38,681 nt of DNA from Minisyncoccota bacterium. Its GTDB lineage: Bacteria; Patescibacteriota; Minisyncoccia; Phycocordibacterales; Zambryskibacteraceae. The notes beneath the pieces are model-generated. The model was not told where the DNA came from. It worked only from the letters and a program-made list of their open reading frames with translations, and ran no database searches. Location of the stretch: NCBI GenBank assembly GCA_036517475.1, contig DATDVZ010000008.1, positions 1-38,681 on the forward strand. The letters run 5' to 3'. Positions 2,883 to 38,547 of the stretch are shown piece by piece. Numbering within the stretch: position 1 is the first letter of the stretch; every line of letters begins with the position of its first letter. A program made the translations under genes and the position numbers.

Positions 2883-2960
2883 ATACTATGATATATCATA
2901 GTATAAAATAATTAAAATTAATGGGTATTAAAATACTATGATATATCATAGTATTTTAAT
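2883..2960. repeat. two more TACTATGATATATCATAGTA palindromes
   Basis: 22 bp palindrome at 2883-2904 and 34 bp palindrome at 2927-2960, centres exactly 50 bp apart, upstream of the TrpR-like gene. Confidence 0.9.
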
Positions 2961-3043
2961 TAACAATTGAGAATTCACAATTAATGATTAACAAAAGAAT
3001 GTATTTGGTGCAGATTCCAGGTTAATTCTTTAGTTATGTTTTT

Positions 3044-3076
3044 CCACTTGCAAACTTGGCGGGGGGGGGTAGTATT
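3044..3076 (+). promoter_or_regulatory. sigma70-like promoter with G9 tract in the spacer
   Basis: TTGCAA (3048-3053), 16 bp spacer containing G9 (3061-3069), TAGTAT (3070-3075). Confidence 0.6.
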
Positions 3077-3103
3077 AGCTAATAAACATAAACAATAACC
3101 TTT

Positions 3104-3469
3104 ATGTCAGCAGAAAAATACACACCATCGGATGAAGAAGTGCGTCTGGGGCAAGAAATGTCAGATCTGGTAAAACGTGAAAATGACAAGGAACATCTCA
3201 AGAAGTCAGGAATTTCATGGCTAAAAGAAGAAAAGGCAAGGGTGGAACGCGAGAGTTCGAGCGAGATTGATTATCTTTCTGCGGTTCATGGCACAACAGG
3301 ACAGACACGAGCACAACAAAAATATAGACTTGGTTTGCTTGATGAAGTATTGAAAGAACTTCAACTTGAAAGTGATATCAGGAGAGAAGCAGAAAGCATG
3401 AGTGTTGGTGAATTGGAAAAGTATATCTCTCTTTTTACGAGAATACTCCAAAAGAAGAAAGGAAACTAA
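3104..3469 (+). CDS. hypothetical protein (charged, helical)
   Basis: 121 aa ORF downstream of the poly-G promoter. Confidence 0.7.
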   Translation: MSAEKYTPSDEEVRLGQEMSDLVKRENDKEHLKKSGISWLKEEKARVERESSSEIDYLSAVHGTTGQTRAQQKYRLGLLDEVLKELQLESDIRREAESMSVGELEKYISLFTRILQKKKGN

Positions 3470-4619: not shown

Positions 4620-5561
4620 TTAGTAAGTTCCTTTCCCAATCCACTTTTGTTGATTTACAGGAAACGATTTAACTTCGCCAGATACTTCAACTTTTGGTCG
4701 AAGGGCTTCAATCTGCTCCTGCAAGTCATCAAGCTTTCTTACAAGTCCAGCATCGCTTACGTCTTCGCGAATTTCGCGAAGACCATCGAGATAATTGCCT
4801 AAACGCCTGCTTGCTACACTAATACGAGGCTCGTCTTCATCAATTTTTTCATCAGCAAGAGCAAATTGGTGTTCTCTCACCACTTCAAGTGCTTCGGCGG
4901 TTAGCCGAGAGCAAACATCCCGAGCAGCCGCACTAATAGCTTTTCGCTTCTCCACCGCTCTTGCTCTGAGGATGTCGTTGTCGCGGCTCGACATGATGTG
5001 AAGACCGAGCATCGCGTATTCTTCAAGATCAGCCGTTACTGCCTCAATGAGAGGAGTAGCTTCTCCTGGCACAAACTCGGTGAGCTTCTCAAGAGCCAGA
5101 ACAAAGCCCATTGCAATTTCATCACTGCCTACCAGCTCTTTGAGCAGATTAGCAAAGGTTTTACGCTCTTCTTTTATTTCCTCTTCTCTCTTTTGTTTTA
5201 ATGCAAATTTGATTTTATTATTTGCATAGATGACAAGTTCTCCGAAAGAAATAAAGCCAACAGCTAAAGAAATGATAATTACGATCAGAGCTAAAAACTT
5301 GGCGCCTATCACAAGTGTGGCAAGGACTCCCAGCGCTGCAGCGACCCAGCCAACCACTAATGGAAATCTGATCTTATCTGGAATTGTCTGGCCGATATTA
5401 CGTTCATGGCCACATAATACTATTAGTACAAGAAGTGAAAATATAGCTAAAATAGGAACATTGACTGTAGTTTTCGGCACAAAAAAAAGTAAATATGAGA
5501 TTGCAGTTATCAAAGGAAAAATGACTGCAAACCTCATGAAATACATGATCTTTTTAAACAT
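4620..5561 (-). CDS. hypothetical membrane protein (about four N-terminal TM helices, helical cytoplasmic C-terminus)
   Basis: Track ORF 4620-5591; ATG at 5561 preferred because AAGGAG lies just upstream. Confidence 0.75.
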   Translation of the reverse strand: MFKKIMYFMRFAVIFPLITAISYLLFFVPKTTVNVPILAIFSLLVLIVLCGHERNIGQTIPDKIRFPLVVGWVAAALGVLATLVIGAKFLALIVIIISLAVGFISFGELVIYANNKIKFALKQKREEEIKEERKTFANLLKELVGSDEIAMGFVLALEKLTEFVPGEATPLIEAVTADLEEYAMLGLHIMSSRDNDILRARAVEKRKAISAAARDVCSRLTAEALEVVREHQFALADEKIDEDEPRISVASRRLGNYLDGLREIREDVSDAGLVRKLDDLQEQIEALRPKVEVSGEVKSFPVNQQKWIGKGTY

Positions 5562-7078: not shown

Positions 7079-8260
7079 CTAAGGCAAAAGAGGGTCGATC
7101 CAGTTTTTTATAGCCTTAAAAATTTTTATCGGGGCCTTAATTAGAATAGTGCTGCCTGACGGGTCATCATCACTAAATCCGGCAATGCAAAGACCCAGTG
7201 CAACAGCAAAAAATGCCTCTCTGATTCTACCTTTATCTTTTTCAAGAAAATTTATGTGGCCGACGCGCGAGGGAAGTTCAAGAGAAGCTTTTGCCAATTC
7301 TTCAACTACAGCCAGATTGCTGCCACCGCCAGTAATGACAATGCCGGCTGGGAGTAATCCGCTTTTACCGATTTTTTTCAGATGAGCTTCAATCAGTTCA
7401 AAAATATCCGTGAGTCTGGCAGAAATAATTTCATCCAGTTTTTTTCTCGGATAACTGTTTAGAGTAATTCCTCCGAGTTTGATACTTTCTGCCTCTTCAA
7501 GAGATATTCTCATTCCCAGAGCTATATCATTTGTAATATCAGCTCCACCGATGGGAAAAACCTCAAGTGAAATGGGCTTATTATTCTCATATACAACTAT
7601 TGAAACTGTTTCTGAACCGATGTTTGCAAGGACAACTCCAGCAATTCTCTGGGTTTTGGTCAAAGTCACGAAACTAGCAGCAATGGGGGATGCCACAACA
7701 TCAACAACATCAATACCCGCTTCAATTACCGCCTCAGTCAGATCCCTAAGATGAGTTTCAAGACATGTTATGAAAAGAGCCCTAACTTCAAGTTTCACCC
7801 CCTTGAGCCCGACCGGAGAATGACCCAACACTTCCTTGCCATCAACTCTGTATTTGACGGGAATCTCATAAATAATAGTTCTGTTTTGCGATGCATTTTT
7901 TGGAATTTCTTCTCTGGCGACTTCCATTGCCGTTTCAGTGTCTCGGCCCGTAATCTCCAGATCACCCCGAGAAATCATGGCAACTCCGGTAGATGTCACG
8001 GCAGAAAGTCCTATACCTCCTACAGAAACATAAGCTTTCTTGATTCTCATCCCCGATGATTTTTCAGCCTGACTTAGGGCAGAGCGGATTGCTTTTGAAA
8101 CTTCCGGAATATTAACAATATAGCCATGGCGCATACCCCAGGATTGAGTTATACCTGTTCCAAGAATTCTCGGATGCTCGTCGTTTTCGGAAGATTTTTC
8201 CGCAACAACAACCTTTATTTGATATGTACCTATGTCTATGCCTACGGCGATGTTTCTCAT
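7079..8260 (-). CDS. ftsA: cell division protein FtsA
   Basis: GIDIGT, ANIGSET, PIGGADITNDIA and VITGGGS actin-like ATPase motifs; directly upstream of ftsZ. Confidence 0.95.
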   Translation of the reverse strand: MRNIAVGIDIGTYQIKVVVAEKSSENDEHPRILGTGITQSWGMRHGYIVNIPEVSKAIRSALSQAEKSSGMRIKKAYVSVGGIGLSAVTSTGVAMISRGDLEITGRDTETAMEVAREEIPKNASQNRTIIYEIPVKYRVDGKEVLGHSPVGLKGVKLEVRALFITCLETHLRDLTEAVIEAGIDVVDVVASPIAASFVTLTKTQRIAGVVLANIGSETVSIVVYENNKPISLEVFPIGGADITNDIALGMRISLEEAESIKLGGITLNSYPRKKLDEIISARLTDIFELIEAHLKKIGKSGLLPAGIVITGGGSNLAVVEELAKASLELPSRVGHINFLEKDKGRIREAFFAVALGLCIAGFSDDDPSGSTILIKAPIKIFKAIKNWIDPLLP

Positions 8261-24566: not shown

Positions 24567-25799
24567 TTACGTTAGAGGTATTTTCATTAGCGCATAGCGA
24601 ATTCTGACAACTGTGTCAGAATTTGCTTTGAACGTCAGTGATTTGATGTCTCTTCCCAATTGAAGCTTTGGGCTTCCGGGGATGAAAAGAACACTATCCC
24701 CATTCTGCTTCCTAATCCAATAGGGTATTGAATCCAAACTTATGATCTGGATTTTATATTTGCGTGGTATTTCAACCGCATTACTCCACTCCATCCCTAC
24801 GATAATTACCGTGTCAATCATGTAATTACCGGCGATATATCGATCAGGAAGTCCATATCCAATGGGGCGTTTGTTATAGTGTGCGTACCAGCACCAGGAG
24901 GATTTCTGCCAGTCCTCGTAGCCGGTCTTACCTTCCTTGCGTTTCTCTCTGACAATGTGCTCCGCAAACGAAGCATTGCCATCAAGTGTATGAATATCAA
25001 TGCCTGCTGACTTTGCGCTATCTCCCCAGATCTTTTCGTTGATCTGGAAAATTCCCACATCATTGGGGTCAGTACCGCGAAAGACGGTTTTTCCATCATC
25101 ATCATATTGCCTGAAATGAGATTCACAGGCCGCAATGTTACGCAGTACTGTATCTGACACCAGAGCAAAAAGAGAATCACGGTCAGGTCCCAAAAAATGT
25201 CTCCAAGGGCTTTCCGTGAATTTCTCTGCCACGCTCGCGCTTCTCACCGGCACTGTGCTTGAAGGGGGAACCTGTTGTAGCTGTTGCAGTTTTTTTCCGT
25301 ATAGTAAAATCATGACAACAGGGATAACAAACGCCCCAGCAATAATCAGACCATCTTTCCACTGCTTTCCTGCCTTAGTTGCAGACTGTTTTGCAGGCGC
25401 AGCTGTTGCTGAAACTGGAGTGGCACTAGCCGAAGTTTTTGATTTTCTGAAAGCGTAAACCAGAATCAAAATGACGATAGTTACTGCTAACGCAATCAGC
25501 CCAAACTTACCAACTGATGACCAGTTGATTATCGGCCAATCAATCCCTTTTAACTTCTCAATGAGATAGACTACACTTACTGCAACCAGAACCACAACGA
25601 TGATGGCGTTTCGCCGCCATCTTGGCAGAAGTTTCTTTTTCATTTTGTAACCCAAAGCCTTTCTCCAGAGAATATATTGGTATGTCCTCTTATGAACTGT
25701 GAATCTTGCTTTGGTGTAGAGCCATTGGCGGCGAAGATAGCGAGTAAATTGATGTCGCCACATTTGGCCCAACAGAAAAAGCGAATTGGATAAATCCAT
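24567..25799 (-). CDS. multi-pass membrane protein with a lysozyme-like / lytic transglycosylase domain
   Basis: Three TM helices, then IAACES (catalytic Glu), VGIFQIN and a W..S..CW motif; AAGGAGG RBS. Confidence 0.75.
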   Translation of the reverse strand: MDLSNSLFLLGQMWRHQFTRYLRRQWLYTKARFTVHKRTYQYILWRKALGYKMKKKLLPRWRRNAIIVVVLVAVSVVYLIEKLKGIDWPIINWSSVGKFGLIALAVTIVILILVYAFRKSKTSASATPVSATAAPAKQSATKAGKQWKDGLIIAGAFVIPVVMILLYGKKLQQLQQVPPSSTVPVRSASVAEKFTESPWRHFLGPDRDSLFALVSDTVLRNIAACESHFRQYDDDGKTVFRGTDPNDVGIFQINEKIWGDSAKSAGIDIHTLDGNASFAEHIVREKRKEGKTGYEDWQKSSWCWYAHYNKRPIGYGLPDRYIAGNYMIDTVIIVGMEWSNAVEIPRKYKIQIISLDSIPYWIRKQNGDSVLFIPGSPKLQLGRDIKSLTFKANSDTVVRIRYALMKIPLT

Positions 25800-25831
25800 A
25801 CTTCCTCCTTTGTAAGATCTTTTCTTTTAAC

Positions 25832-25861
25832 ATACTAACACATTTTTTATACATTTGTCAA
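25832..25861 (-). promoter_or_regulatory. sigma70-like promoter
   Basis: TTGACA-N18-TAGTAT on the minus strand. Confidence 0.6.
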
Positions 25862-25865
25862 TTAA

Positions 25866-25894
25866 AAAAGCTAACCAGAACTTGGTTAGCTTTT
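25866..25894 (-). terminator. intrinsic terminator
   Basis: AAAAGCTAACCA-gaact-TGGTTAGCTTTT. Confidence 0.7.
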
Positions 25895-25902
25895 GATGAA
25901 CA

Positions 25903-27003
25903 TTACTTCTCAGGCTGAGCTGATTTTCCTTTATCAGGCTGAGGAATAATGATACCCATACCCTTGCCACCAATAGAGAGGGTGGTAACGGTCTCATTGC
26001 TCTCATATGCTTCAGCAAACCTAACTGCAGGTCCTCCTGGTTCGCGGGCAACAGGCAGAATCACTCTATTTACGCGATCTTCATCTGCCTCATTGGCAAG
26101 CATCTGAACTTCCTTCGCCGCTTCTCCAGCAAGAATTGTAACTTTCTTGTCGGCTTCTGCCACCTGAATCTTGGCGGCCTGCTCAAGCCGAGTTTTTTCT
26201 GCAAGCTGAAGCAGTTCGCGCAGTTTCTTTTCTGCCTCATCCGGATCAATTGAGAAGAGGGAAGCATCGGTAATAAATATTCCGAGTTGACTGAGAGTAT
26301 CGCCAGCGATTCCTTCTATCGCGTCAGTAAGCTCTTCTTTCTGTTTCACATCTCCATATAAGTAATAGTCAGGCGGCTTGCTGCCAGTTAAGGCAATAGT
26401 TCTTGCTTCTGCCTTCTGCGAAAGTACAGCATTGGCATCAGCCACTCTAACGATGGCTTTAACTGGATGTTTTCTTTCAAAGATTATGTTGTAAATGATA
26501 TCAAGTCCGAAGGCTCCGGCAGTTTCGGCATTATCAACCTTTACCGCCTGATTACTTGAGAAGAAGACAAACTTTGTTTTCTGATCCTCTGGGAAAACAT
26601 GATATGTCTCTTCTTTATCCTTCCTTCCATATCTAAAAGACCGTAATGCATTCCGGCGAAGGTCTTTAAAAGGTCCTTTCCAATGTACGCCGTAAAGGCG
26701 ATGGAGTAGACCTCTATCTTCCTCTCCTTCCACGAACTCAGCGTTGAAAAGATTGTTATCTGCCGGAATTATTAAGCGGTGTCCAGGGATGTCATGAGCT
26801 ATTCCAACAATCCCGCCACCACCTTCAGTGAGATCTGTGGTCTCGTTACCTTTTCTTACTAGAAGGGCATACGTGTTTCCTGGAGTAAAAAACCAAAGAA
26901 TCTCCTTATTGGCAAGAGCTCTGATTGCAAGTCCGACGAAGAACCATAATCCAAAAAGTGTCGCAGCTATTGCTGCGGCATATATAAGAATTTGCGTCAG
27001 CAC
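25903..27003 (-). CDS. SPFH/band-7-like membrane protein
   Basis: N-terminal TM helix, a beta-rich domain ending LGIFITDASLFSIDP, then an AEA/AE-rich coiled coil; AAGGAGG RBS before GTG. Confidence 0.75.
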   Translation of the reverse strand: MLTQILIYAAAIAATLFGLWFFVGLAIRALANKEILWFFTPGNTYALLVRKGNETTDLTEGGGGIVGIAHDIPGHRLIIPADNNLFNAEFVEGEEDRGLLHRLYGVHWKGPFKDLRRNALRSFRYGRKDKEETYHVFPEDQKTKFVFFSSNQAVKVDNAETAGAFGLDIIYNIIFERKHPVKAIVRVADANAVLSQKAEARTIALTGSKPPDYYLYGDVKQKEELTDAIEGIAGDTLSQLGIFITDASLFSIDPDEAEKKLRELLQLAEKTRLEQAAKIQVAEADKKVTILAGEAAKEVQMLANEADEDRVNRVILPVAREPGGPAVRFAEAYESNETVTTLSIGGKGMGIIIPQPDKGKSAQPEK

Positions 27004-27045
27004 ATTTCCTCCTTTGAATAGTTTCAGAGATCTGTTCCAGTGAGG

Positions 27046-27074
27046 ATTCTATAATGAAGTTGGAGAAATGTCAA
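27046..27074 (-). promoter_or_regulatory. sigma70-like promoter
   Basis: TTGACA-N17-TAGAAT on the minus strand. Confidence 0.65.
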
Positions 27075-27089
27075 CTTTGTAATGAAAAA

Positions 27090-27117
27090 CCGCCGAGCGC
27101 GCAAGCACGCTCGGCGG
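27090..27117 (-). terminator. terminator-like hairpin
   Basis: CCGCCGAGCG-N8-CGCTCGGCGG. Confidence 0.65.
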
Positions 27118-27147
27118 CACTGATTTTCTAAAGCTACCTGATTGACT

Positions 27148-27840
27148 CTACTTCGGAAGTTGGCGAAGTTGATAGGTAAGCAGATCAGTGAAACTCCAGT
27201 TCTTGCTCACACCTGTTAACTTTCCTCGGACTGGATTATCGACACCATCGATTGTCCTGACCACGAATTTCAATGGCCAGCCATTATGTCCCGGAATTGA
27301 ATTCATGGCAATGTGGAAATCGGTCCACCAACACCACGGCGCGAATTTCCCCATAGCCATGCACAGGCGTGGACCAACCTCTGGCGGACAGATATCAATC
27401 TCCTGTCCATAGAGGTGATGTGCGCTCCAGCTGGCAAGCCACTCGGAGTTGAAGATTTGCTTTGACTTGTATGTGCCGAGAGCCGCCGGGGTGATAAAAA
27501 CCAAGTCGATCTTCTCCTGCTGAACCAGAGTGGTGAATCCTGGGTCAGCAAGCATTGTGTGTGCGTTTTCTTCTACTTCGCATGCGCTCTCGACTAATTG
27601 CGCCAACTCCAGAGGCCTTGCGCCTCCGATCTCCAGTCCATCGTGGTTTACCGGTAAGACCATTCTCATTCCCCGAGATACCTCTTGTCCCTCAGCGATT
27701 CGTTGAAGTTCACTCATTACCCAACGAACGGGAATGGCGCGATCGTCTAGCCGTTTCCTAACACCCATCCATCGACGATCAAGAGCTCCAACTTCTTCGT
27801 TCGTGAGTCTTCCGTCCGCGACAGCAGAATATGCCGTCAT
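27148..27840 (-). CDS. hypothetical protein (GC-richer than its neighbours)
   Basis: ATG at 27840 (MTAYSAV) has GGAGG upstream; own promoter and terminator. Confidence 0.7.
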   Translation of the reverse strand: MTAYSAVADGRLTNEEVGALDRRWMGVRKRLDDRAIPVRWVMSELQRIAEGQEVSRGMRMVLPVNHDGLEIGGARPLELAQLVESACEVEENAHTMLADPGFTTLVQQEKIDLVFITPAALGTYKSKQIFNSEWLASWSAHHLYGQEIDICPPEVGPRLCMAMGKFAPWCWWTDFHIAMNSIPGHNGWPLKFVVRTIDGVDNPVRGKLTGVSKNWSFTDLLTYQLRQLPK

Positions 27841-28020
27841 ATGACAGTTCCTCCGTTTTTGAACCCGGATTAACGCTCTGGTTGGCGGCAAGTCTCCGAA
27901 TGAGACAAGCTCTCCAACGTCGAGTTATTCGACGGCAAAGAGCTTGTCTCAGATTCAAATGATTGAAAAGATCTATGCTGTGGTGATCCTACAATAGCTT
28001 ATTGTTTTGTCAAGGTAAGT

Positions 28021-28169
28021 AAATAAATTTGTTTTATTAGTATGGGTGGGAGAGGACTTGATTCTTACAGAATCTGTACATCTTTCGCATTCTCCGCCAA
28101 TTGGCGGATCATATATGCTCAAGGTCTTCAAGTCCTCTCGCGAGAACAAATAAATTTGTTTTCTCCTTA
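28021..28169 (-). repeat. tRNA-Leu(TAG) 3'-associated structured element with a duplicated tRNA 3' end
   Basis: Direct repeat 28021-28061 vs 28148-28188 (127 bp period); inverted T-arm copy at 28127-28139. Confidence 0.8.
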
Positions 28170-28250
28170 TGGGCGGGAGAGGACTTGAACCTCCACTCCT
28201 TGCGGAACTAGCTCCTAAGGCTAGCGCGTCTGCCATTTCGCCACCCGCCC
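28170..28250 (-). tRNA. tRNA-Leu(TAG)
   Basis: Acceptor GGGCGGG/CCCGCCC, anticodon arm CTAGC-CTTAGGA-GCTAG, long variable arm, T-loop TTCAAGT; CCA not encoded. Confidence 0.95.
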
Positions 28251-28385: not shown

Positions 28386-28664
28386 TTAGGATCTTTTGGC
28401 TTTTAGGATCATTGTTCTGGTCCCAAGAAAATGTGTGGCAACATTTTTTCTAGGGATACTGAGTCTGTCTACTTCTTGCAAGAGAGCTTTCATACTCTTA
28501 GCTAAAGCTACTGATCTGCCATTATGGAATGCAACATACTGGTTAGGAAACTTTTTTTGAAGTCTTCTTAACTGCGCATCCATTGATCTAACGTTTGCAC
28601 TAAATGATCTTAATTCTCTTGCGACTTGAGACGGATTATCTATAAGATCCTTAAGTCGGTGCAT
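28386..28664 (-). CDS. small protein resembling the DUF5678 family
   Basis: KKFPNQYVAFHNGRSVALAKSMKALLQEV pattern, recalled family resemblance only. Confidence 0.6.
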   Translation of the reverse strand: MHRLKDLIDNPSQVARELRSFSANVRSMDAQLRRLQKKFPNQYVAFHNGRSVALAKSMKALLQEVDRLSIPRKNVATHFLGTRTMILKAKRS

Positions 28665-28770
28665 TTTTTCTCCCGGAGATTTCTAGGTTAAAAGTATTAA
28701 AAATTGTAACTAAAGTCAATTTGAAATCTTGATAAACCTCAACTTTTTTCGTATTCTTTAAACCTGAATT

Positions 28771-28792
28771 TTATGGCCACGTAGCCAAGTAG
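28771..28792 (+). repeat. duplicated 5' end of tRNA-Cys
   Basis: TTATGGCCACGTAGCCAAGTAG is identical to 28877-28898. Confidence 0.85.
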
Positions 28793-28880
28793 CATGAGCG
28801 TAGCGAATTATAAAAAAGCCAGCAAGCTGCTCAAGGTTAGTATTGTGGTAGGATTTTGTTGATTGTAATAAGTTAATTAT

Positions 28881-28955
28881 GGCCACGTAGCCAAGTAGTA
28901 AGGCAGCTCTCTGCAAAAGAGCTACACGCGAGTGCGATTCTCGCCGTGGCCTCCA
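28881..28955 (+). tRNA. tRNA-Cys(GCA)
   Basis: Acceptor GGCCACG/CGTGGCC, GCTCT-CTGCAAA-AGAGC, U discriminator, encoded CCA; variant T-loop TGCGATT. Confidence 0.9.
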
Positions 28956-29087
28956 GGCAACGGAGCAAGCAAATTGATTTGCTTGCGTCGAGAATCGCAG
29001 GCCGGAATATCTTGCCACAGGCAAGAATGAGGCGGGGTCGCGAGTTTGCATTGCAAAACTTGTGACCGATTCTCGCCGTGGCCTCCA
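28956..29087 (+). repeat. tRNA-Cys 3'-associated structured element
   Basis: 22 bp direct repeat 28935-28956 = 29067-29088 (132 bp period); inverted T-arm copy at 28989-28999. Confidence 0.85.
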
Positions 29088-29168
29088 GCCCGAGTGGTGG
29101 AATGGTTTACACGCACGACTTAAAATCGTGTGCCGCAAGGCATGTGAGTTCGAGTCTCACCTCGGGCA
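29088..29168 (+). tRNA. tRNA-Leu(TAA)
   Basis: Acceptor GCCCGAG/CTCGGGC, CACGA-CTTAAAA-TCGTG, long variable arm, T-loop TTCGAGT. Confidence 0.95.
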
Positions 29169-29171
29169 TTT

Positions 29172-29476
29172 CCGCCCATAGCTCAGCTGGTCCCGTACCA
29201 AAACCTTTTAAAAGGAATTTAATTTGTATAATATTGTATTTTATGTAATTTTCCGTCCCTGTGTCCACCCATAGCTCAGGCTGGTAGAGCAGTTGCCTCT
29301 TAAGCAAACGGTCGCAGGTTCGAATCCTGCTGGGTGGACACAGGGACGGCAACAAAAAATTATTTAGATAAATTTGGTACGGGATATATGCCGCAGTTGC
29401 GTCCCTGCCCCGTAGCAAGCTTCGCTTTGCTTCGGGGTTAAGCAAACGGTCGCAGGTTCGAATCCTGCTGGGCGGA
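29172..29476 (+). pseudogene. interrupted outer tRNA-Lys scaffold enclosing the intact tRNA-Lys
   Basis: 5' part CCGCCCATAGCTCAGCTGGT (29172-29191) and 3' part (29438-29476) have mutually complementary acceptor arms CCGCCCA/TGGGCGG. Confidence 0.65.
29265..29338 (+). tRNA. tRNA-Lys(CTT)
   Basis: Acceptor CCACCCA/TGGGTGG, GTTGC-CTCTTAA-GCAAA, GCAGG-TTCGAAT-CCTGC. Confidence 0.9.
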
Positions 29477-29610
29477 TATGATAGAAAAATAAGAATTGCT
29501 TCATATTTTTCGGTACATATCCGAGACGGAGCCATGTTTTTGCAGCTGCAAAAACAGGCGAGTCGGGGTCGCGGAAATTTCGTTTTAACGAAAACGAAAT
29601 TATCTGTGAC
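29473..29610 (+). repeat. structured element related to the tRNA-Cys element
   Basis: CGGATATG/CATATCCG stem, 22 bp palindrome at 29535-29556, GGGGTCGCG (29565-29573), hairpin, TGTGAC (29605-29610). Confidence 0.6.
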
Positions 29611-38273: not shown

Positions 38274-38356
38274 GCGTCGGTGGTAGAGTGGACAATTACA
38301 ACAGACTGTAAATCTGTCGCCTTCGGGCTTCGTTGGTTCGAATCCAACCCGGCGCA
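38274..38356 (+). tRNA. tRNA-Tyr(GTA)
   Basis: Acceptor GCGTCGG/CCGGCGC, ACAGA-CTGTAAA-TCTGT, long variable arm, T-loop TTCGAAT. Confidence 0.95.
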
Positions 38357-38360
38357 CAAA

Positions 38361-38547
38361 ACAAATATTCGAGCCTTACGCTCGCTAATTTTGTTTTGCT
38401 GAATCATGGGTGGGATTCGAACAGGAAGAGGGTCGGAGAAACTCTAGTTTCTCCGTGAAGGAAAACAGCGAGCTAAGCGAGCGTTAGAAACCGTGGGTTT
38501 CTAAAGAGCGACGCAGTCGCGAGTGAGATTCCAACCCGGCGCACAAA
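38361..38547 (+). repeat. tRNA-Tyr 3'-associated structured element
   Basis: 18 bp direct repeat 38343-38360 = 38530-38547 (187 bp period); inverted T-arm copy at 38408-38422. Confidence 0.85.

Follow-up and report, generated by a model that had tools for sequence, protein, structure and literature searches.

A tRNA-Lys gene nested in a broken tRNA-Lys gene of a CPR bacterium and its probable origin by DNA insertion

We analyzed a stretch of 38,681 nucleotides (the window) from a Paceibacteria-type CPR bacterium. The stretch codes for proteins such as a short IF-2, RbfA and ClpB, and its relatives are CPR MAGs of the Paceibacteria/Nomurabacteria type. In most of 80 relatives a tRNA array of the order Cys-Leu(TAA)-Lys(CTT)-Leu(TAG) is conserved beside infB-rbfA, with frequent inversions and with spacer lengths between 2 nt and >1.6 kb. 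The array of the window is preceded by a promoter-like site (28729-28757) and carries, at 29172-29476, an intact tRNA-Lys(CTT) gene enclosed by the 5' and 3' pieces of a second tRNA-Lys gene (Table 1). Several other tRNA genes of the window are accompanied by copies of their own ends, and tRNA-Cys has a nested look like that of tRNA-Lys. The exact copy of the tRNA-Cys 3' end (29067-29087, 21 nt) abuts tRNA-Leu(TAA) at 29088-29168; the genes for tRNA-Leu(TAG) and tRNA-Tyr, each followed by an element of its own, lie at 28170-28250 and 38274-38356.

Table 1. Coordinates of the nested tRNA-Lys locus and of tRNA-associated elements in the window
Feature	Position	Strand	Sequence or evidence
Outer tRNA-Lys, 5' fragment	29172..29190	+	CCGCCCATAGCTCAGCTGG; positions 1-19; acceptor strand CCGCCCA
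Proposed inserted unit, 247 nt	29191..29437	+	Putative, by analogy with the block of the tRNA-Pro loci L181/L180 (134/136 identical)
IR1, left arm	29191..29202	+	TCCCGTACCAAA
IR2, left arm	29253..29264	+	CCGTCCCTGTGT; flush with inner acceptor stem
Inner intact tRNA-Lys(CTT)	29265..29338	+	ARAGORN; Rfam RF00005, 65.4 bits
IR2, right arm	29338..29349	+	ACACAGGGACGG; first base is the discriminator
IR1, right arm	29373..29384	+	TTTGGTACGGGA
tRNA-Lys-like stretch	29385..29403	+	TATATGCC + GCAGTTGCGTC; positions 24-34 with C32G
34-nt hairpin element	29404..29437	+	CCTGCCCCGTAGCAAGCTTCGCTTTGCTTCGGGG; GCGAAGC mini-hairpin on minus strand
Outer tRNA-Lys, 3' fragment	29438..29476	+	Positions 35-73; acceptor strand TGGGCGG
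Truncated type-A 3' element after outer gene	29528..29610	+	GGAGC..GAGTCGGGGTCGCG..GTGAC, without tRNA-end copy
5' element of tRNA-Cys	28775..28880	+	Exact copy of positions 1-18 (28775-28792), CATGAGCGTAGCGAA module, spacer
Intact tRNA-Cys(GCA), between copies of its 5' end (upstream) and 3' end (downstream)	28881..28955	+	ARAGORN, Rfam
Type-A 3' element of tRNA-Cys	28956..29087	+	Covariance model, 27.9 bits
Type-C 3' element of tRNA-Leu(TAG)	28042..28169	-	tRNA-end copy 28043-28061; covariance model, 29.3 bits
3' element of tRNA-Tyr	38358..38544	+	187 nt, structured; tRNA-end copy 38526-38544

The surroundings of the array hold further features. A small ORF on the minus strand (28386-28664, 92 aa) has a weak match to DUF5678 and is conserved in the array of the relative L088 (~4900-5200); with respect to tRNA-Leu(TAG) it is placed differently in the window and in L088, indicating rearrangement. 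The stretch adjoining tRNA-Leu(TAG) at 24567-27891 has a G+C content of 43-49% compared with ~39% and contains three minus-strand ORFs. We considered this GC-richer stretch (~25-28 kb) as a large island beside the tRNA gene and rejected it: it has no third tRNA-end copy, and Pfam returned weak matches only, SPFH/Band_7-like, with two ORFs lacking a Pfam match. In relatives, free-standing homing-endonuclease-like genes occupy the spacer between tRNA-Cys and tRNA-Leu (L014, L035, L053, L059 and L064), and further endonuclease-like genes are found in array spacers (L057, 8137-8766; ORFs of ~240 aa in L026, L057 and L075). Pfam assigns HNH to the gene of L053 and LAGLIDADG to that of L057, and the 240-aa type gave only a weak helix-turn-helix match. 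The HNH and LAGLIDADG genes in these spacers show that the array is targeted by selfish DNA and by break repair.

The acceptor strands of the two outer pieces, CCGCCCA and TGGGCGG, pair with each other, and the outer 3' stretch ends in TGGGCGGA, reaching 29476. The inner gene has the acceptor stem CCACCCA/TGGGTGG, which differs from the outer pair at 3:70, and a D loop with one extra G. The 3' halves of the two genes form a 39-nt repeat with one mismatch and 35 consecutive identical nucleotides. In the outer gene the 3' strand of the D stem is degenerate, reading ..CCGC where GAGC is expected, and the two large pieces are separated in part by 194 nt bounded by IR1, a perfect 12-bp inverted repeat whose word is present in two copies in the window compared with 0.19 expected. 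The original prediction, made from the letters alone, had described an intact tRNA-Lys within a broken one with these features (the distinct, self-pairing outer acceptor stem, the 194-nt segment between the IR1 arms, the 35 shared nucleotides and the degenerate D stem), and all of its coordinates for the arrangement were confirmed. It had missed IR2, a second perfect 12-nt inverted repeat, which lengthens the inner acceptor helix to ~20 bp; every other tRNA gene scanned in the collected loci (459 including the tRNA-Lys of the window) has at most seven acceptor-extending pairs. The interruption of the outer anticodon loop is also present, but it is not the predicted 37 nt in place of CTC: we read a 34-nt insertion between C34 and U35, plus a C32G change, and parse the arm as GTTGC-GTC-(34 nt, 29404-29437)-TTAA-GCAA.

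The proposed unit of 247 nt consists of the left arm of IR1, an AT-rich spacer, IR2, the inner tRNA-Lys and IR2' in its first half, and of a spacer, the right arm of IR1, a short tRNA-like piece and the 34-nt hairpin in its second half. It contains no real ORF (only spurious minus-strand ORFs overlapping the tRNAs are listed), and no target-site duplication is visible beside it. Elsewhere in the window the words of the inverted repeats are absent, and a search of 174 loci gave no relevant match; they also differ from the inverted-repeat words of the tRNA-Pro and 5S rRNA loci described below. The missing ORF and target-site duplication and the differing words speak against an insertion. The whole region folds into nested rods, with z = -8.7 compared with shuffled sequences.

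The original prediction offered two explanations, an insertion carrying its own replacement tRNA or a spliced/processed precursor. According to the second, the outer gene would contain an intron or be split, and splicing or trans-assembly would turn it into another functional tRNA-Lys. Removal of 29404-29437 would indeed create the anticodon loop GUCUUAA with the anticodon CUU, and the T arm and acceptor stem of the outer gene are intact. However, the boundaries are perfect helices without a bulge-helix-bulge, no group I or group II intron or ribozyme was found with Rfam even at a permissive threshold (E ≤ 10), the D stem stays broken when both inserts are taken out and retains 2/4 pairs after removal of the 194-nt insert, and ARAGORN with introns allowed finds the inner gene alone. 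When we joined the pieces virtually in 14,446 exon-boundary combinations, every listed tRNA-Lys(CTT) call by ARAGORN was at 29403/29438; this trial is too permissive to serve as a test, and many odd tRNAs were called. We find splicing of the outer gene hardly credible.

The outer fragments at 29172-29190 and 29438-29476 would be the displaced 5' and 3' ends of a resident gene. The outer 5' end is located 3 nt past tRNA-Leu(TAA); this is the usual start of tRNA-Lys in relatives, whose spacers measure 2-26 nt, and the outer exons are identical at 68 of 70 positions to the functional tRNA-Lys of the relative L003 (sequences read by eye). The outer pieces complement each other within a single gene (1-19, 24-34 and 35-73). 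Among 447 tRNA contexts no other has their breakpoints or a 39-nt 3' copy that begins within the anticodon loop. Downstream of the outer gene lies the truncated 3' element, which we set by eye against the element at 28956-29087. The original context, the clade-typical sequence and the 3' element of its own make the outer gene look original, and the inner gene with its palindromic flanks look added. The inner tRNA-Lys is atypical by its A3:U70 pair and the extra G of its D loop when set against all relatives listed in the tRNA-Lys comparison; U70 is present in the close relative L087. The functional tRNA-Lys genes of L003, L048, L054 and L073 have G3:C70. As this is the state of functional genes in relatives, the outer pair is explained by the halves of one formerly intact gene, and because both 3:70 states are known in relatives, the earlier suggestion that both acceptor stems were under selection is not required.

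The comparison of the locus with relatives, which had been proposed as a check, bore out the outer gene as clade-typical in state and position and did not yield an empty or intermediate Lys site, which we count against an insertion; the nearest relatives share 72-78% identity in RbfA (ribosome-binding factor A). A protein search with RbfA and three contigs examined for closer relatives gave none reaching the Lys locus. A 42-mer of the inner type had 0 matches in a metagenome scan, and in a genome scan the 39-mer matched only tRNA-Lys(TTT) genes and L003. In at least 15 relatives a copy of tRNA-Lys positions 1-12 is conserved upstream of the gene, and so the outer 5' piece could have arisen earlier as a separate module and not be half of a split gene. 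In L088 an upstream D-arm-like remnant resembles part of the outer 3' piece, and this sequence likeness hints that the locus may have a more complex history.

The 34-nt hairpin is not confined to the window. Its exact 30-nt core is present in five metagenome contigs and two genome (GTDB) contigs, which identifies it as a dispersed element; in the viral collection the hairpin had 0 matches and its 18-mer only chance matches in a coding region. Two loci (L181, 4470-4700; L180, 1-130), from two different MAG species, contain an intact tRNA-Pro(TGG) within a broken tRNA-Pro. They begin with an outer 5' part (positions 1-33, acceptor CGGGGCG), which is followed by the intact inner tRNA-Pro between the arms of a 14-nt perfect inverted repeat. 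After these come a tRNA-like piece of 7 nt, the hairpin and an outer 3' part (acceptor CGCCCCG). The hairpin, 7-nt piece, inverted repeat and inner tRNA are identical at 134 of 136 positions between L181 and L180, so that the inner cassette is much better conserved than the outer gene: the outer 3' parts agree at 32 of 39 positions, with compensatory changes in the T stem, and the upstream flanks are unalignable. Such a pattern is expected of a cassette that spread recently into two resident genes already diverged from each other. The same arrangement recurs with 5S rRNA. In L175, L176 and L179 an intact 5S rRNA (Rfam, 69.7 bits) lies within a broken 5S gene. Inverted repeats (29 nt and 20 nt) enclose the inner 5S, and 21 nt separate the hairpin from the cassette. 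The locus lies in the 23S-5S region of a groundwater CPR organism (L176, 380-800, minus strand) and was assembled identically from three metagenomes. In L178 a displaced 5' fragment of tRNA-Pro(GGG) precedes the intact gene, and the hairpin comes directly after this fragment. We define the gene-in-gene class as an intact small RNA gene with inverted repeats inside its own broken copy, the hairpin lying at a distance of 7-21 nt from this cassette; the tRNA-Lys of the window, the tRNA-Pro of L181/L180 and the 5S rRNA of L175/L176/L179 all have this form. The identical hairpin is the only sequence common to the Lys, Pro and 5S loci.

The tip of the hairpin reads GCGAAGC on the minus strand (29419-29425), and the tRNA-Cys 5' element contains GCGTAGC at 28798-28804. 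The pattern GCGNAGC is found nine times in the window compared with 9.0 expected and hence is not enriched. GCGNAGC is a motif that forms extraordinarily stable DNA mini-hairpins (PMC13037366), and the hairpins tipped by it hint at a site or intermediate that may be a single-stranded-DNA hairpin.

These parallels also bear on the trivial explanation that the nested locus is an assembly artefact, in which two tRNA-Lys alleles from different strains or loci were joined through the 35-nt repeat, or a chimera arose by amplification of the palindrome. The source is of a metagenome type, no independent assembly of the window was found, and assemblies do break at the repeat, the contig of L087 ending inside it. 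But the inner acceptor strand pairs with inner and the outer with outer, as in real genes, and two direct copies on one contig leave only a deletion or a tandem amplification as another resolution. Since a like architecture was assembled independently for 5S in three metagenomes and for tRNA-Pro in two MAGs, we consider an artefact very improbable.

We regard it as probable that a DNA insertion split the resident tRNA-Lys(CTT) and brought a complete replacement, with the outer copy left as an unspliced relic. The first explanation of the original prediction is thus supported by the outer ends in their original context, by the 68/70 match of the outer exons and by the tRNA-Pro parallel. The resident gene would have been the clade-usual tRNA-Lys(CTT) with the acceptor CCGCCCA/TGGGCGG. 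An insertion of ~247 bp (29191-29437) would have entered between position 19 and position 35 and would have supplied a whole tRNA-Lys(CTT) on a palindromic stalk of two nested 12-bp inverted repeats, with the 34-nt hairpin element terminating the insert. The inner gene would now be the working copy, and the outer halves would be displaced relic ends that are not spliced. We infer from the analogy with the tRNA-Pro loci that the insert may have arrived as a single unit; the stretch at 29385-29403 could be either a remnant of the resident gene or a portion of the inserted unit. In the transcript, leader and trailer would zip together (7 + 12 + 20 bp), which may prevent wrong pairing between the decoy halves and the inner tRNA, and such zipping would explain the strong fold with no need for a function. 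The event would be one instance of a recurrent process in CPR bacteria that strikes small structured-RNA genes and compensates for this with a whole or partial copy of the target.

Partial copies of tRNA genes are frequent in this clade. Fragments of at least 12 nt are present in spacers of 27 of 81 related loci, and their breakpoints are stereotyped, 5' copies stopping at position 12 or 18/19 and 3' copies beginning 19 nt from the end, at C56. Such fragments favor a local origin of the nested locus, in which the outer pieces would be independent partial copies of tRNA ends that only resemble one split gene; they would stem from template switching during replication or from break repair at a hairpin or palindrome, and the inverted repeats from palindrome extension. 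The 5' copies of tRNA-Lys upstream of the gene in relatives, the tRNA-Cys of the window with flanking copies of both kinds and the repeated inversion and rearrangement of the array fit this as well. Local duplication does not account for outer pieces that are complementary within one gene (1-19 and 24-73), that both carry the G3:C70 state absent from the inner gene and that have breakpoints unlike those of any other tRNA context, and duplication in place does not predict the far higher conservation of the inner tRNA-Pro cassette. We consider local duplication rather unlikely but still a serious rival.

Many of the 3'-end copies belong to structured elements of 95-140 nt, which begin directly after the tRNA, contain conserved hairpins and end in a 19-nt copy of the tRNA end. 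In the commonest type, compensatory changes affect six of the 9 bp of helix P1 and likewise maintain P3, and P4 has a GUA triloop with a covarying closing pair. Helix P2 forms between one strand of the 3' elements and the beginning of the copied tRNA end, with only a modest cognate specificity by pairing count (8.9 of 11 pairs compared with 7.8 of 11 for non-cognate ends). A scan with the type-B core identified 83 copies in 79 loci, nearly all from Paceibacteria; 74 of the 83 are located behind a tRNA on the same strand, representing 20 tRNA species, and ~55 have an exact 19/19 match to the tRNA end or an equivalent. The covariance model built on type B also detects other types, including the tRNA-Cys and tRNA-Leu(TAG) elements of the window. 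We define trailer elements by their location after a tRNA, helices P1, P3 and P4, an exact 19-nt copy (C56-C74) and a match to covariance model R1. The tRNA-Cys (27.9 bits) and tRNA-Leu(TAG) (29.3 bits) elements match R1. The trailer of the inner tRNA-Lys (29339-29476) falls outside this class, having the 39-nt copy and no R1 match at E ≤ 1. The body of the tRNA-Tyr 3' element resembles a tRNA-Lys element of L073 and is undetected by the type-B model. Rfam searches of the array and of a type-B locus, with gathering and permissive thresholds, returned tRNAs only, and literature searches on tRNA introns, tRNA-like elements and repeats in Patescibacteria, Parcubacteria and Nomurabacteria turned up no description of such structures.

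The 3' elements are present in some genomes and absent from others with exact boundaries. Comparison of the filled site of L025 with the empty sites of L028, L039, L085 and L052 places the element and its 19-nt copy precisely after the tRNA end and ahead of the downstream promoter, which identifies the 3' elements as precise insertions. The related genomes L025 and L063 have identical tRNA-Leu(TAG) 3' ends followed by a different element at the same site (B and A, respectively). In L017, tRNA-Leu(TAG) is followed by a tandem pair of identical 3' elements of 139 nt each (7786-8063), and L120 has two type-B copies 112 nt apart; a copied tRNA end is evidently usable as a new target or crossover site. 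In the collected loci we found no tRNA 3'-end copies more than 300 nt downstream, as autonomous versions of the elements would have. The type-B core had 0 matches in the viral collection; there the type-A pattern, besides four chance matches within GC-rich coding regions, picked out one real element, L168. In this contig, which is classed as viral (IMGVR_UViG_3300033463_005745), two tandem type-A-like elements lie between direct repeats (2890-3260), with no recognisable tRNA beside them. A 5' element of tRNA-Cys is present in at least 15 genomes among those inspected. It contains tRNA positions 1-18, a CATGAGCG-N-AGCGAA motif and a copy of the 5' strand of the anticodon stem that is closed into a hairpin, and it follows the lineage-specific substitutions of its cognate tRNA.

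The nested locus might be an RNA-level device, a leader-trailer stalk or tRNA-like punctuation that is cut by RNase III, RNase P or RNase Z and was selected for maturation of the array. This would suit the very stable nested fold, the perfectly paired outer acceptor stem and the compensatory changes in the helices of the related 3' elements, and with the promoter-like site upstream the whole array may be one transcript. A general processing feature, however, is not expected to be unique, and the acceptor-extending repeat is so among 459 clade tRNAs; in addition, the upstream tRNA-Lys copy of relatives drifts from pairing with the tRNA 3' end, and the elements are presence/absence polymorphisms. 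We consider such a device improbable.

From their common architecture and motifs, we infer that the elements with 19-nt copies and the full gene-in-gene cassettes are related. It is possible, and we propose it tentatively, that they form an undescribed class in CPR bacteria of ORF-less, self-compensating mobile insertions into tRNA and 5S genes, with GCGNAGC-tipped hairpins and a whole or partial replacement copy. The elements with 19-nt copies, found after at least 20 tRNA species, would represent this class in its minimal form, and the nested tRNA-Lys would represent it with a full copy. Their mobility might depend on a hairpin intermediate of single-stranded DNA or on homology arms from the conserved RNA gene. 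If this is true, essential single-copy RNA genes of tiny genomes are overwritten by small selfish cassettes that carry a rescue copy, a natural 'cleave/insert and rescue' logic that works without a protein gene. It would also provide a route for the horizontal replacement of tRNA and 5S rRNA genes and account for the rearranged tRNA array and the assembly breaks there. For annotation, fragments beside CPR tRNAs would then be footprints and not noise, and with more than 80 conserved, structured, tRNA-linked elements outside Rfam, function and mobility mechanism are now testable.

Several known systems share parts of this design. Archaeal multi-intron, split and permuted tRNAs resemble it in the interruptions of D, anticodon and T loops and in complementary leader and trailer sequences. 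In contrast, the host here is bacterial, an intact copy lies inside, and the outer tRNA-Lys has neither a splice motif (a bulge-helix-bulge) or ribozyme core nor joined exons that can fold. Phage T4 segB is a free-standing homing endonuclease gene in a tRNA gene cluster, and the arrays of relatives likewise hold HNH and LAGLIDADG genes in their spacers; unlike these, the array of the window has no endonuclease gene and the nested structure no ORF. Small palindromic or MITE-like elements, of which the Rickettsia palindromic elements are an example, also enter genes, RNA genes among them. They are similar in being short, ORF-less, hairpin-forming and dispersed, and in residing within functional genes of reduced genomes. 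However, they are not known to duplicate or replace their target, whereas here the 34-nt hairpin marks a gene-in-gene junction. Of the features of transposons and MITEs, the locus has the perfect 12-bp inverted repeat; no flanking duplication is visible, and the inverted-repeat words have no further copy in the window and no relevant one in the 174 loci.

In its logic the locus matches islands and prophages that integrate into tRNA and tmRNA genes with tyrosine integrases, as catalogued by Islander (PMC4383910). In both cases the target gene is split, the insert restores an intact gene, and a fragment in direct orientation is displaced to the end of the insert; at the Lys locus the regenerated target is the inner gene (29265-29338), and the displaced fragments are 29438-29476 and 29172-29190. 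The displaced 3' fragment spans the anticodon loop to the 3' end, a stretch that is reportedly among the classical sublocations of tRNA-gene integration distinguished by Williams in 2002. Integrase islands carry an integrase and cargo between the repeats, whereas the insert here is ~250 bp (247 nt in the proposed unit) without an integrase or any other ORF. It contains a whole gene copy, so that fragments are displaced on both sides, and the inner gene stands between inverted repeats. The same design has also struck 5S rRNA, and the related elements with 19-nt repeats follow at least 20 tRNA species with one common body.
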